Shown here piece by piece: positions 70 through 53,912 of a stretch of DNA of 64,000 nucleotides. The translations under genes were made by a program, and so were the position numbers. This DNA comes from a virus. Taxonomy: Duplodnaviria > Caudoviricetes. The notes below the pieces were generated by a model. The model saw only the letters and a program-made list of their open reading frames with translations. It was not told the origin of the DNA and made no database searches. Position 1 is the stretch's first letter; the number at the start of each line of letters is the position of its first letter. Location: the IMG/VR virus record IMGVR_UViG_3300021255_002694; one strand, written 5' to 3'.

Positions 70-288
70 ATGAGAAATAAAATATTAACAGAAAGTGGCG
101 TCTATGGGCTGTCACTCACATATATTGCAAATAAGTTGAAAGACATTGCAAACGATTTAGACTATAATATTGATTCAGATGAAAATTTTTATTCCGATGA
201 TTTAAGATCATATGCCGATTTTATTGAAAGATTTGCTGATGTTACAGAGCGGCGCATGGATGAAATTGATAAATATATAAATGGTTGA
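70..288 (+). CDS. Small acidic protein with N-terminal I/L-x-E leader (MRNKILTES)
   Basis: ORF 61..288; ATG at 70 follows GAAAGG SD; leader shared with many other ORFs in the window. Confidence 0.65.
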   Translation: MRNKILTESGVYGLSLTYIANKLKDIANDLDYNIDSDENFYSDDLRSYADFIERFADVTERRMDEIDKYING

Positions 289-361
289 TGTATATATATA
301 ATGCACAAATGTATACTTACTTTTATGTATACATTTGTGCGTTTTTTATTCTCAAAAACAC

Positions 362-390
362 TTGACATGTGAAATAAAATGTGGTATACT
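362..390 (+). promoter_or_regulatory. Recurring sigmaA-type phage promoter, copy 1
   Basis: TTGACA(362)-N17-TATACT(385), extended -10 TG, followed by ATATTTGTAA. Confidence 0.85.
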
Positions 391-437
391 ATATTTGTAA
401 GTACGAAAATCGTGATTTGAAAGTGAGGTATTATATT

Positions 438-950
438 ATGGCAAGATTTGATGAAATTACACCGTTTACTGTTGGAACTTATGAGGTAGACATTCATGTT
501 AGATATCTGCTTGATGAGTTAAAAAGTTATGATCAGGACTATATTCTTGAACTTAATCCTGATTTTCAGCGCGGAAATGTTTGGACCGAAGAACAACAGA
601 TTGCGTACCTTGAATTCTTTTTCAAGGGTGGTAGATCGGCTAGAGTTATTTACTTCAATATCGGTGAGTGGAGTCTTGATCCTAATACGGATATTCCCCA
701 TATGGTATGTGTTGACGGGTTACAGAGATTAACTGCATTCATCCGTTTTCTCAATAATGAGATTCCTGTTTTCGGGGCGTACTACAGAGAATATGAGGAT
801 AAGACAAGAGATACAATTAAGTTCAACATCAATAATCTTGCATATAAGAAAGATGTTCTTAAATGGTATCTTGAAATGAACTCTGGCGGAACTGTACACT
901 CTGATTCTGAACTCAATCGTGTTCGGGAAATGATTAAGGAATATGAGTAA
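438..950 (+). CDS. Stand-alone DUF262 (ParB/Srx-like, GmrS-type) domain protein
   Basis: LNPDFQRGNVW and VDGLQR motifs; ATG 438 after GAGGT SD. Confidence 0.8.
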   Translation: MARFDEITPFTVGTYEVDIHVRYLLDELKSYDQDYILELNPDFQRGNVWTEEQQIAYLEFFFKGGRSARVIYFNIGEWSLDPNTDIPHMVCVDGLQRLTAFIRFLNNEIPVFGAYYREYEDKTRDTIKFNINNLAYKKDVLKWYLEMNSGGTVHSDSELNRVREMIKEYE

Positions 951-965
951 TGGGGGTTTTGGATC

Positions 966-1295
966 ATGAAGAAAGTTTTTGATTTGAAAGATGGATCGGT
1001 TTTGAAGATTGATTATAATTCAGAACGGACTACAATGGGATGTCCTACTTGTGGTTACGGTGCTAAATATATCGACTGGATTATACTAGAACTTACTCAT
1101 TACACAATTAAATATGCAACTGATAACAGCGAAGGAAAATTGTCTGATTTTGACCTCATTCAGCTTTTCGGAGATGTTAGCAATGATATGACTGAGTTTG
1201 AATTTTTGCACCATGTTATTGATCACATGGGTGATTTTGAAGAATTTACAATTTCAATCACTAAGAATGATTTTGATGGAGTAACGCATGACTGA
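966..1295 (+). CDS. Hypothetical protein with CPTC motif
   Basis: ORF in + strand gene run. Confidence 0.6.
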   Translation: MKKVFDLKDGSVLKIDYNSERTTMGCPTCGYGAKYIDWIILELTHYTIKYATDNSEGKLSDFDLIQLFGDVSNDMTEFEFLHHVIDHMGDFEEFTISITKNDFDGVTHD

Positions 1296-1315
1296 ATAAT
1301 GCAAAAGGAGATTTT

Positions 1316-50682: not shown

Positions 50683-51099
50683 ATGAAACTCATATATGAA
50701 AACATGAGCGTTGATGAGTTTATGAAAAGATACAATTATATGTATGATAAAGAGTGGTATGACGAAAACTTAAAAAGACCGCTACTTGTTGACACAAATG
50801 AGGATTTTGATGATCCTATTAAACTCATTACAAATAACGATTTCATGTTGATTCTCCACAGTTTTGAAAAAGAAGCACTAGAGTATGTAACAGATATTTT
50901 CGGAAAAATTGATATTCCGTTGATTGGAAGTTTTGATTTTGGCGATTTAGTTGATACTTTTTGTGATACATTTAACGGAATACGCATGACAATAGAAAAA
51001 ATATATCTTGAAGATGAACTTGAAAAATTGTATGATATGATTGATAGAAGTTTGGATGGAGTTGCATACTATGACGGTAGATATTTCAAGTTCGCTTGA
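50683..51099 (+). CDS. Leader-bearing acidic protein (MKLIYEN)
   Basis: GGGTGA SD; shared leader. Confidence 0.65.
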   Translation: MKLIYENMSVDEFMKRYNYMYDKEWYDENLKRPLLVDTNEDFDDPIKLITNNDFMLILHSFEKEALEYVTDIFGKIDIPLIGSFDFGDLVDTFCDTFNGIRMTIEKIYLEDELEKLYDMIDRSLDGVAYYDGRYFKFA

Positions 51100-51123
51100 T
51101 CTATGCCGGAAAGGAGTACGTAA

Positions 51124-51771
51124 ATGATATTGACATATGAGAACGATTTTTCCGATACTGATGACTGGACAGATTACTCTGATAGCGATTCTTATGATGA
51201 TAGTGTCGGAGAGGCTTTTTGTGCTGATATCACAGATATACTAAATGATCTTATTGATGAATCAGATATTATTGAAGAAGATTTCACTTCTGAGAGAAAC
51301 ATGAGAAATCACTTTGAGAAACATTGTTTAGGTCATAGTAGAAATAAACATTCTACACGGCAAAACGTCTACTATGACTTTAATGACAATAGCAAATACT
51401 GCGATTATGAGAGATTTATTTCAAATAGATTTGCAGATGCAGATGTAATTTTCGGATCATTATATGCATATGATGATATAATTAAAGCACTTAAAAAGTT
51501 ATTTACTGGTGATTATTTAATTAGATTTGGAACTGGCTGTGGTTTACGCAGTGGTGGAAGACCTGTTAGTTTGTCTATATATGCATTTTCTAGTAATGTA
51601 ACTGAAAATTATCAAGGTGGAAATACTGTCGATATTTGCATTAAGAACGGCGGCGGAAAAACAATTACACTTTATGCTGTTGACGCAAATTATCTTCAAA
51701 ATAAGTTCAATAACTTAATTAAGAAATACTGTGTATATACAGATATTTCTGATTTTGAGTTTAATAGCTGA
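51124..51771 (+). CDS. Protein with leader-like start (MILTYEN)
   Basis: AAGGAG SD; acidic N-terminal region. Confidence 0.65.
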   Translation: MILTYENDFSDTDDWTDYSDSDSYDDSVGEAFCADITDILNDLIDESDIIEEDFTSERNMRNHFEKHCLGHSRNKHSTRQNVYYDFNDNSKYCDYERFISNRFADADVIFGSLYAYDDIIKALKKLFTGDYLIRFGTGCGLRSGGRPVSLSIYAFSSNVTENYQGGNTVDICIKNGGGKTITLYAVDANYLQNKFNNLIKKYCVYTDISDFEFNS

Positions 51772-52475
51772 GAGGTTTAAAATGAGTTACTATATCTGCA
51801 TGTCAGTTATTCCAAAGATCATTGAACAAAGTGATGTTGTTCCGGTTGCTTTGGAGTTCTGTAAATATATGCTGAGACAAGAAAATATAGAAGAAATTAT
51901 TGGATGTAATATCAGTTGGCTACCTAATTATGCAAATCTTCTCCATGATAAAGAATTAGCTATTTGGAGTTTTAGTGATTCTGATAGTGATTTTCTTTAC
52001 AGCATTTTTAGATATACATTTGTTTACTATAAGAAATATAAGATGCTTTGTGTTATCGGTGATTATTCTGATTATAAGCACATCATATTCCAGAATTCAT
52101 GTGATCAAGATGAAGATTTTAACACATGGCAAGCATTGTATGCTGATAATCCGTGCAGAGATATTTTCAAAGAACTTGTCGATAAAACAGTATCAGGTGA
52201 AAATATTGCAGAAATACGCAAATATTTCAATGATGTTGATTGGGACAGCAATATTGATACTGAACTTGATACTGAATATTTTAAACGATGGTATGTCTAT
52301 AAGAAGATTGAAGATGCTCTATGCATTGATGGTGTTTTATGGGATGCTGACAGCGAGGACTTTTTCAAATTTGAGCTTGGAAAAAGACTCACTATAAGTA
52401 ATATGACAAATATAAAAGTAGCCGCAGTAAAGGCACTTAGTAAAGAAATTGAAAAACTGAAAGGGTTGATGAGTA

Positions 52476-52988
52476 ATGAAACTGATGATTCGTGAATCAG
52501 CGGAAAATGGATCGGAAATGACAATTAAAGAATTTTTAAGTGATGTTAAGAAGATTTATGCAGAGCATTTTCCGGACAGTCAGTGTCAGGCAAAACTAGC
52601 AAAGAATCTAGGCAGAGCAATTTTTATTGATTTTTACCTTGCAAAAGATTCATCTGAGGTTTCACATGGATACGCACAGAATGACATGTTTAAGTGTGGT
52701 TTTGTAATTCATCTGGACGATAATGTTGAAGCTGATTCTCCGATGCCTGATGCAACACTTGAGGCAATGAGTTCTGTGATCGCAACAAAGCCATCAAACA
52801 AGTGGCTTGCTTATGATGCAACTAAAGTTCCGTTTAGAAAGACAACTGGAAATGCAAAGAAGTTGCTTAGTACCATTGAAAAATATGTTCAGAAACTTGC
52901 AAATGCTATTCATACTGAATATGAGAATGATAACATTGCAGATAACTATAAATCTATTGTAAAATCAAAAATCGGTAACATTAAGTAA
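52476..52988 (+). CDS. Leader-bearing protein (MKLMIRES)
   Basis: AAAGGG SD; shared leader. Confidence 0.7.
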   Translation: MKLMIRESAENGSEMTIKEFLSDVKKIYAEHFPDSQCQAKLAKNLGRAIFIDFYLAKDSSEVSHGYAQNDMFKCGFVIHLDDNVEADSPMPDATLEAMSSVIATKPSNKWLAYDATKVPFRKTTGNAKKLLSTIEKYVQKLANAIHTEYENDNIADNYKSIVKSKIGNIK

Positions 52989-53001
52989 TGGGGTGATATA
53001 A

Positions 53002-53268
53002 ATGAAGTTGCAAAATGAAGAACTTGAATTTGACAGAGATGATATGCTTGATGATGTTGAACTACAAGTATTTTCTAAACTGCGCAAATATGCAGAGCGA
53101 CTTAACCATGTTGCAAATTATGAATCAAATCTAGTTCAAAAGAATGATGAAGAACTTGAATTTGTGTTTAATCACTATTTTAAGGATAGTCAGGATTTAA
53201 AAGATGCCATTAGAGATTTAAGAAACTCTATTGATGAGATAGAAAGAATTTTAGGAGTTGATCTATAA
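53002..53268 (+). CDS. Acidic protein with leader-like start (MKLQNEE)
   Basis: GGGGTG SD. Confidence 0.65.
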   Translation: MKLQNEELEFDRDDMLDDVELQVFSKLRKYAERLNHVANYESNLVQKNDEELEFVFNHYFKDSQDLKDAIRDLRNSIDEIERILGVDL

Positions 53269-53912
53269 TGAAATTGAAGATAAATGAATCAAACGAAGAT
53301 TTTGATATGAGTGAATATGATGATATGCATGAGTATTGCGAAAATTTTGAGGATGAACTTGCTAGTAAGTATTCTGGAAAATCATATGATGAAGTTAGAT
53401 CATTCATGCAGAGAAATGGATTCCACTTTGAAGAAAGTAGTGGGCTTACCGAAGATGAATGTGAAGAAATTTGGTCTAAATACTACGAAGATAATCTGAT
53501 CACAGTCAATATTTGGTTTGAAGTTCTAAAGGGTGATCGCCGTAGAACAGTTGGAAAAATGTTGAATTGCTATGCAAATTTTGAATACTCAAAGAGATAC
53601 AGCACAAATGAAAGTCTTACAGAATCATATAAAGATTACTGGGCGTATAAAGAGGTTTCTAACAACTGGGAATCTGATGTTGCTGTTAAGTTGAATGGAA
53701 AACAGGCAACTGTTGTTATCTGGTATGATAAAAAAGATAGAGATGTTTATGCAAAGTTTAAGATCGAACAGGACGATGGTTTCTGGTTTGTATACGATAT
53801 TACTGATGGCAAGAATCATATGATCAATGACGAAATTGAACTTGATGAAGAAAACGGAACTCTTGATGATGCCGTAAAGAGTTGTTTCTATTACTTCCAT
53901 ACAAGATATTGA
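53268..53912 (+). CDS. Leader-bearing acidic protein (MKLKINES) with internal TNESLTES
   Basis: AGGAG SD; shared leader. Confidence 0.7.
   Translation: MKLKINESNEDFDMSEYDDMHEYCENFEDELASKYSGKSYDEVRSFMQRNGFHFEESSGLTEDECEEIWSKYYEDNLITVNIWFEVLKGDRRRTVGKMLNCYANFEYSKRYSTNESLTESYKDYWAYKEVSNNWESDVAVKLNGKQATVVIWYDKKDRDVYAKFKIEQDDGFWFVYDITDGKNHMINDEIELDEENGTLDDAVKSCFYYFHTRY

Follow-up and report, generated by a model that had tools for sequence, protein, structure and literature searches.

Why do so many unrelated small proteins of one phage begin with nearly the same seven residues? The question is raised by IMGVR_UViG_3300021255_002694, an IMG/VR virus record assigned to the Caudoviricetes, whose whole 64,000-nucleotide stretch (64 kb, 34% G+C) was analysed and is called the window here. 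Our own gene call places 113 of its 114 genes on the + strand, mostly small orphans, and about 17 unrelated small proteins, the products of approximately 15% of the window genes, begin with a common tag of about 7 residues. A preliminary description of the window had listed 18 such starts, all of which are present as written, and had read the tag as a plug-in leader that loads diverse cargo into the phage head. We consider it somewhat more probable than the alternatives taken together (roughly 0.6) that the tag is, by analogy, a greatly expanded version of the capsid-targeting sequence (CTS) of phage T4, a protease-trimmed peptide for capsid loading. Under such a scheme the leader would direct unrelated proteins into the assembling prohead core, much as the T4 sequence does, a gp21-type head protease would cut the leader off after its Glu, and the trimmed proteins, acidic for the most part, would remain inside the head, from which they could pass into the host along with the DNA.

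The leader is 5-8 residues long and typically reads M-[IK]-[KR]-L-I-x-E, followed by S, N or G (a slash marks the predicted cut in the sequences below). In 16 of the 113 called proteins, [ILVMF]-x-E-[SNGT] occurs among the N-terminal 11 residues, as compared with 3.3 expected from internal positions (binomial P = 2e-7), and a stricter pattern for leaders containing K or R gave 10 of 114 as compared with 2.0 expected at internal Met residues (P = 3e-5). Shuffling residues 2-11 of each N-terminus still yields about 8 strict matches (7.9 +/- 2.6), so composition contributes to the motif count, and the leader might in principle have arisen by chance in an AT-rich genome that favours Lys, Ile, Asn and Glu codons after the start. 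Such an origin is hardly credible: the 16 observed matches exceed both expectations, the position of the Glu is fixed, and only one of the 240 genes of Listeria phage LIS04, which likewise infects a Firmicute and is AT-rich, has a canonical leader. The N-terminal enrichment supposed in the preliminary description is thus seen against internal positions and shuffled N-termini alike. Within the leaders, Glu is encoded by GAA or GAG, Ser by AGT or TCA, and Leu and Ile by many codons. The motif is therefore conserved as amino acids and not as RNA, which shows that selection on the leader acts at the peptide level.

Behind the leader the proteins have little in common. An all-against-all BLASTP of 21 candidates returned a single marginal pair (39441 vs 70, E = 0.004), and none of the 19 cargo proteins searched reached the threshold for a Pfam or PHROG family, in agreement with the earlier claim that the bodies are not homologous. 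They were also said to be often acidic, and 81% of leader candidates have an isoelectric point (pI) below 5 as compared with 48% of the other window proteins (Mann-Whitney P = 0.002).

The 64-kb window contains no head or tail genes. We located two relatives in IMG/VR through NrdD, the anaerobic ribonucleotide reductase, and analysed them over their full length: G001 (G1; 201.9 kb, NrdD 80% identical) and G002 (G2; 198.5 kb, 75%). In both, a Peptidase_S77 (T4 gp21-type) domain, with E ~1e-14 and above the Pfam cut-off, sits in an open reading frame (ORF) of 568-569 amino acids directly beside a gp23-type capsid gene, whose product matches T4 gp23 structures (E = 3e-15), and portal, terminase and adaptor genes lie alongside. 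Apart from the peptidase domain the ORF consists of a coiled-coil tail, which makes it a protease-scaffold fusion. At least 738 proteins, on contigs of up to 289 kb, belong to the clade that this fusion defines, and LIS04, a cultured relative whose capsid protein is 37% identical, has a 559-amino-acid U9 protease beside its capsid gene. The gp21-type protease that the preliminary description proposed to look for is found in G1, G2, the 738-member clade and LIS04, whereas the window itself holds no head genes; we infer that the window's own genome encodes such a protease and that its tagged proteins are packaged, cleaved and injected. LIS04 and two further cultured relatives, Bacillus phage vB_BceM-HSE3 and Streptococcus phage vB_SagM-GXN1, were looked up in the literature; the titles listed include a LIS04 genome announcement, and virion proteomics is not indicated by any of them.

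The motif that ends the leader recurs inside the head proteins of these phages. We scored every protein (about 300 each in G1 and G2) for how densely [ILVMF]-x-E-[SNGTA] occurs in its interior. The protease-scaffold ORF has the highest density in both, with 17 sites in G1 and 18 in G2 as compared with 3.6 expected (P = 3e-7 and 6e-8), and second place in G1 and third place in G2 go to another head-module protein. The top three proteins of LIS04 by motif density are also head-module proteins. Leader and scaffold sites are alike in having I or L at P3, Lys as the commonest residue at P2, and Ser at P1' (47% and 65%, respectively). Among 38 canonical leaders pooled from the window, G1 and G2, P3 is I or L in 34, P1 is Glu, and this Glu is residue 7 in 23. 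T4 gp21 cuts after L-x-E or I-x-E and carries LIE at its own residue 9 (PMC9026906). In an alignment of 15 members of the protease clade, the sites L4-I5-E6/T7 (I5 near-invariant), L14-x-E16/S, V171-x-E173-S174, F183-x-E185-S186 and E222-S223 are all invariant; His74 and Ser130/131, likely the catalytic residues, are invariant as well.

The capsid proteins carry the motif too. That of G2 has I-C-E62/A, 22 residues before VVPNLIA, and LIS04 has L-L-E/T at the same offset. By spacing, the T4 gp23 site E65/A66 maps to L-T-L-E45/K of G2, but LIS04 has Asp for that Glu; E45 was passed over for this reason, and we favour I-C-E62/A as the predicted maturation site, which would be functionally, not positionally, equivalent to that of T4. 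The leader motif therefore also marks, in relatives, the protease-scaffold protein (G1 and G2) and the capsid protein (G2 and LIS04), where the preliminary description had suggested looking for it. This evidence, circumstantial but convergent, suggests that the tag equals the cleavage rule of the gp21-type head protease of close relatives. As a separate observation, the gp23-type capsid gene of G1 (L026, 12873-15600) matches the Pfam model in three pieces (13095-13703, 14724-15104 and 15502-15600) with ORFs between them, unlike the capsid gene of G2, which is one 413-amino-acid ORF; the arrangement points to interruption by elements such as introns or homing-endonuclease genes.

The leader also behaves as a detachable appendage. 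The 170-amino-acid protein MKLMIRE/S (52476-52988, + strand as for every leader gene below) has homologs down to 49% identity that retain M-K-L-x-I-x-E, then a variable linker of 5-6 residues and then a conserved body. AlphaFold models this family with a predicted local distance difference test score (pLDDT) of 88.6 and a predicted template-modelling score (pTM) of 0.83, and only residues 1-12, the leader and linker, are disordered (pLDDT < 50); phrog_21515 aligns to the protein from residue 15 only. In the one family modelled, the leader is thus shown, at the level of the predicted structure, to lie outside the fold. The key family for the gain or loss of the leader is that of the 95-amino-acid protein MIKLIKE/GSRVTD (44857-45144). 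About 60 of its 69 homologs are leaderless and start M-[GAS]-x-RVTD, and only the five closest homologs are tagged, with MIKLIKE/GSRVTD, MVRIIKE/GARVTD or MVTRLKE/SRVTD set directly on the native N-terminus. Since the leader abuts the RVTD start, a cut after the Glu would restore the N-terminus with which the leaderless forms naturally begin. In G2 the ortholog starts with another leader, MKITE/G, that is still within the rule. Sequence comparison thus shows that the leader can be added to or absent from one and the same protein family. Additionally, the body of the 89-amino-acid protein MIKLIE/N (42599-42868; GAAAGG ribosome-binding site and a 14-bp hairpin) recurs as the C-terminal domain of a leader-bearing 213-amino-acid protein adjoining the head module of G1.

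A leader that matches the rule of a gp21-type protease, lies outside the fold and is added to existing N-termini follows the logic of the T4 CTS, and on these converging, if circumstantial, grounds the plug-in capsid-loading tag of the preliminary description is partly supported. The N-terminal 10 residues of T4 IPIII are enough to bring about head loading, and gp21 removes them (PMC9026906). Like the T4 internal proteins IPI, IPII, IPIII and Alt, the tagged proteins share a short N-terminal peptide that ends in hydrophobic-x-Glu, in a lineage that has a gp21-family protease (PMC9026906, PMC3012670). In both systems, further, the mature proteins are unrelated and share the leader only, the fold does not depend on the leader, and a copy of the site lies near the N-terminus of the protease itself. 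The system described here is known from sequence only, and differs in several respects: the leader is usually 7 residues and not 10, with the unrelated sequence M-[KI]-[KR]-L-I-x-E; protease and scaffold form a single fused protein; the cargo proteins are acidic; ribosome-binding sites in the clade are of the Firmicute type; and the window has about 17 tagged genes in its 64 kb as compared with four proteins in T4. Because the T4 leader differs in sequence from the leader here, the likeness is an analogy of design and not a homology of the peptides. What is new relative to the T4 CTS is the shorter and different leader, the protease-scaffold fusion, the acidic cargo and, above all, the number of tagged genes.

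Several observations weigh against loading into the capsid. The baseplate-hub protein of G1 and G2 starts MANIITE/S or MSNLITE/N, and because the motif is short, single matches such as this one can be coincidental. LIS04 combines the same protease design with its one canonical leader in 240 genes; the protease alone therefore does not produce a tag set, and the expansion is specific to the rumen clade. The best-known DNA-associated internal proteins of T4, IPII and IPIII, are basic, and the cargo here is acidic. Four listed members (3631, 51124, 53002 and 45156) depart from the leader rule. The phage is uncultured, and packaging, cleavage and injection of its proteins are predictions from the DNA. 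Some of these points would be accounted for if the leader were an N-terminal signal for a non-capsid purpose, for instance a degradation, localisation or assembly tag, whose likeness to a protease site is coincidental. Such a signal would fit the matching N-terminus of the tail protein, the protease without expansion in LIS04, the disorder and portability of the leader, which suit any terminal signal, the early-type promoters that some leader genes of the relatives follow, and the resemblance of the leader to the ClpX N-terminal motif, Met-basic-hydrophobic-hydrophobic-hydrophobic. We nevertheless judge it unlikely, as it leaves unexplained the near-invariant Glu at residue 7 followed by Ser, the match to scaffold sites at P3, P2 and P1', and the motif density that picks out head-module proteins in three phages.

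The rule that a hydrophobic residue stands two positions before the Glu, as the preliminary description had it, describes most of the listed genes. At 3631, 51124 and 53002 the P3 residue is R, T and Q, respectively, with the hydrophobic residue at P4 instead; at 45156 an Asp replaces the Glu; the leader at 40605 is long; and the start at 39438 is doubtful. An Asp at the cleavage position of the T4 CTS blocks processing, not targeting (PMC9026906), a result that bears on the 45156 leader, MIKLISD/S, of a 108-amino-acid protein (45156-45482).

Promoter types give some indication of when the leader genes are expressed. We distinguish a class E box, [AG]TG[TA]TATACTATAT, an extended -10 of the host-sigma type that sometimes has a TTGACA -35 and precedes many non-leader genes, from class L, a plain ACTATA box. 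The structural modules of G1 and G2 contain class L boxes exclusively (5 of class L and none of class E, vs 15 and 47, respectively, elsewhere; P = 0.0016), and in the window class L is the type of all 4 leader genes that have their own box as compared with 4 of 16 other genes (P = 0.014). The head module of G2 has a row of leader genes immediately upstream of it, at 175-190 kb. Promoter sequence thus points towards co-expression of the leader genes with structural genes. However, two observations count against the capsid-loading reading here: pooled over the three phages the box association is marginal (P = 0.047), and some leader genes of G1 and G2 sit behind class E, early-type boxes. A leader-gene class separate from the early genes is therefore weakly supported by the promoter sequences. 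As a side observation, the early-type promoter is a highly conserved element of about 20 nucleotides, [AG]TG[TA]TATACTATATTT[AG][TC]AAG, with an extended -10 and sometimes a TTGACA -35. Copies occur for example at 388, 4255, 6876, 16538, 23050, 38689, 45592, 46676, 48845, 54058, 56015 and 62038, the element is common almost letter for letter to G1 and G2, and one copy lies just upstream of cas7.

Leader genes are also over-represented at GAAAGG-N9-13-ATG ribosome-binding sites (9 of 18; P = 2e-4), and many share a layout of A-run, box and hairpin. Both facts would be expected if the shared N-terminus were the by-product of a nucleotide element, either a translation-initiation region or a mobile regulatory cassette spread by recombination. 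We regard this as quite improbable, given that synonymous codons vary freely (AGT or TCA for Ser, GAA or GAG for Glu), that operon-internal leader genes have no cassette, and that the leader is kept across homologs with different DNA. A cassette that carries the tag may well be compatible with capsid loading, and the upstream cassette may, from its sequence, be the vehicle that moves the tag. In full, the layout before leader genes consists of an A-run, an AC[AT]ATA box, a perfect hairpin of 7-14 bp, an AT-rich stretch and a GAAAGG ribosome-binding site, and it is seen at 32691-32749, 41285-41352, 42520-42598, 43247-43317 and 44787-44856. It recalls the promoter-stem-loop cassettes of T4-type hyperplastic regions. 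The upstream hairpin was rejected as a marker of leader genes, as many non-leader genes have hairpins too.

The cargo itself gives few clues to function. Foldseek found no match at E <= 1e-3 in the PDB for the 52476 model, the sole confident one, the protein atlas had no usable match for 41353 or 53268, and the 370-amino-acid protein at 41353 has no relative among viral contigs and belongs to no family. The preliminary description had offered the tagged genes as a candidate list of anti-defence or DNA-mimic proteins; Pfam, PHROG, Foldseek and the atlas returned no similarity to a known anti-defence family or DNA-mimic pattern, and general acidity is the only such feature we observe. This result would agree with proteins that are loaded and trimmed but act inside the head, as core or scaffold accessories, in charge balance or as a help in DNA ejection, and are not effectors directed at the host. 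In favour of such a role, effector or anti-defence domains could not be recognised in any cargo protein, and T4 also keeps small acidic core-protein peptides in its head. The turnover of the leader genes speaks for the opposite, since homologs in G1 or G2 exist for 2 of the 21 as compared with 25 of 92 other genes, a difference that is not significant (P = 0.10), and one family is mostly leaderless. Fast turnover and a mostly leaderless family fit accessory, arms-race genes better than structural ones, and we consider a purely internal role rather improbable.

For capsid loading as we read it, a broader proposal can be put forward tentatively, and we hold it to be possible rather than probable: the clade would preload its capsid with dozens of different low-copy proteins (10-15% of genes), and the 7-residue leader would be an evolvable switch that moves any phage protein from production after infection to delivery along with the DNA. 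This switch may be visible in the 44857 family, whose members lack the leader in most phages and have it in a single lineage. If true, a simple sequence rule would list the proteins that a clade of abundant gut and rumen phages delivers ahead of gene expression, and the tag would provide a sequence-only way of listing the injected proteins of uncultured phages. Their number would be far above the four leader-bearing internal proteins of T4, and proteins delivered this early would be in the best position to counter host defences. For the engineering of Firmicute phages, the short leader could provide a handle for packaging.

Other phages offer partial parallels. T-even internal proteins are diverse and defence-related and have only the CTS in common (PMC3012670). 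The polymorphic internal-protein loci of T-even phages (Repoila et al. 1994, cited in PMC3012670) likewise contain fast-evolving, unrelated ORFs that keep a CTS-like start and are read as arms-race cargo; unlike those loci, which form one small locus per genome, the tagged genes here are dispersed in several clusters. In giant phages of the phiKZ type (phiKZ gp175, SPN3US gp245, 201phi2-1), many proteins inside the head are cut after Glu by a diverged protease of the gp21 type (PMC9026906, PMC5694885, PMC10052503). Many different packaged proteins in a large phage are thus common to both, observed in theirs and proposed in ours, though the phiKZ-like lineage is unrelated and its capsid protein sequence is non-gp23-like. 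The phiKZ-like propeptides are long and heterogeneous, with the motif [SAG]-x-E, and we know of no uniform short leader described in these phages. Loading in the Dar system of phage P1 relies on specific protein-protein hierarchies (DarA, Hdf) and not on a common cleavable leader. What is proposed here would resemble the Dar system, whose capsid-packaged anti-restriction proteins are the subject of PMC9024508 and PMC12810830, in that anti-defence proteins are preloaded in the head and delivered with the DNA.

The remaining leader genes, again all on the + strand, vary in their upstream signals. Near the left end of the window, MRNKILTE/S (70-288, 72 amino acids, pI 4.1) has a GAAAGG ribosome-binding site 11 nucleotides upstream and an 11-bp hairpin upstream, and MITLRNE/S (3631-4152, 173 amino acids, pI 4.1), with its hydrophobic residue at P4 and not P3, has a GAAAGG site with an upstream box and stem-loop. 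Between these two lies a weaker candidate absent from the earlier list, MFEDVKRILTE/G (3218-3526, 102 amino acids), which matches the loose motif with its Glu at residue 11. The gene at 5513 was rejected as a leader gene, as a DUF4314 domain begins at the motif. Further downstream, MVRITE/S (32750-33217, 155 amino acids) follows an A-run, a TTACTATAA box, a 12-bp hairpin and a GAAAGG site. The doubtful (L)MKITE/S (39438-39701) has no ribosome-binding site, and an alternative ATG at 39486 has a strong GGAGG.

A dense group of leader genes starts with MIKLVVE/S (40203-40580, 125 amino acids), which has a GGCGGTGA site 7 nucleotides upstream together with a AACTATAAA box and a hairpin. It is followed by MVRRTNIVKHRRFTE/S (40605-40934, 109 amino acids), whose long, basic leader of 15 residues begins at a GTG with a GAAAGG site at the usual spacing, and by MIRKLEE/S (40998-41228, 76 amino acids), identified by its motif. 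The largest cargo protein, MIRLIME/S (41353-42465, 370 amino acids), is preceded by an A-run, a TTACTATAG box, a hairpin and a GAAAGG site. Translation of MIKRICE/T (42923-43126, 67 amino acids) could begin at a GTG (42911) or an ATG (42923), and either choice places the motif at the N-terminus. Between two leader genes we add to the list a 17-codon remnant, VIRLLHE/SAEDRKLYKF (VIRLLHESAEDRKLYKF) followed by a stop (43136-43189), which to judge from its sequence is probably a decayed leader gene. MIKIINE/N (43318-43869, 183 amino acids) again has an A-run, a TAACTATAG box, a hairpin and a GAAAGG site.

The right-hand part of the window contains two extra candidates recognised by the motif or a variant of it: MRKLKD/A (47471-47686, 71 amino acids), a weak one with the Asp variant LKD/A, and MILLSVLE/S (49355-49669, 104 amino acids), which has a GTG start. 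The motif likewise identifies the operon-internal MKLIYE/N (50683-51099, 138 amino acids) and MILTYE/N (51124-51771, 215 amino acids), with T at P3. Last in the list are the weak MKLQNE/E (53002-53268, 88 amino acids), off the rule with Q at P3 and E at P1', and MKLKINE/S (53268-53912, 214 amino acids), which has an AGGAG ribosome-binding site. In LIS04 (L038-L041), starts of the form M-x-x-[IVF]-x-E-S (MTTIFES, MFTIVSES, MIIISES, MSNVSES and MYNFSES), for example at 11929, 25803, 30222, 85470 and 113848, may from their sequence be a local version of the leader.

Recognisable genes in the window include those for an EcoRI-type methyltransferase, a GmrSD_N+HNH protein, a CRISPR-Cas cassette, NrdD with a glutaredoxin tail and a Thg1-like enzyme. 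At 17651-20893, a 688-amino-acid protein with an EcoRI-type adenine methyltransferase domain is followed by a 378-amino-acid GmrSD_N+HNH protein, a pair that sets a methylase beside a nuclease of the modification-dependent type with cas genes directly downstream. A megablast search of the 6.7-kb stretch 17651-24321 against cultured phages gave no match, and an exact 40-mer taken from the end of the window has no copy in viral_contigs or metagenome_contigs. The phage-borne CRISPR-Cas locus (20916-29944) encodes a Cse1-like protein (20916-22466), Cas7/CT1975 (23104-24321) and a Cas2-Cas3 fusion (26249-28981). Behind the fusion, at 28984-29944, are about 16 degenerate 29-nucleotide repeats at a spacing of about 60 nucleotides; their identity to the reference copy, only 62-86%, is unusually low for an array. 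The NrdD of the window (34754-37192) ends in a C-terminal glutaredoxin/thioredoxin-like domain at residues ~740-811.

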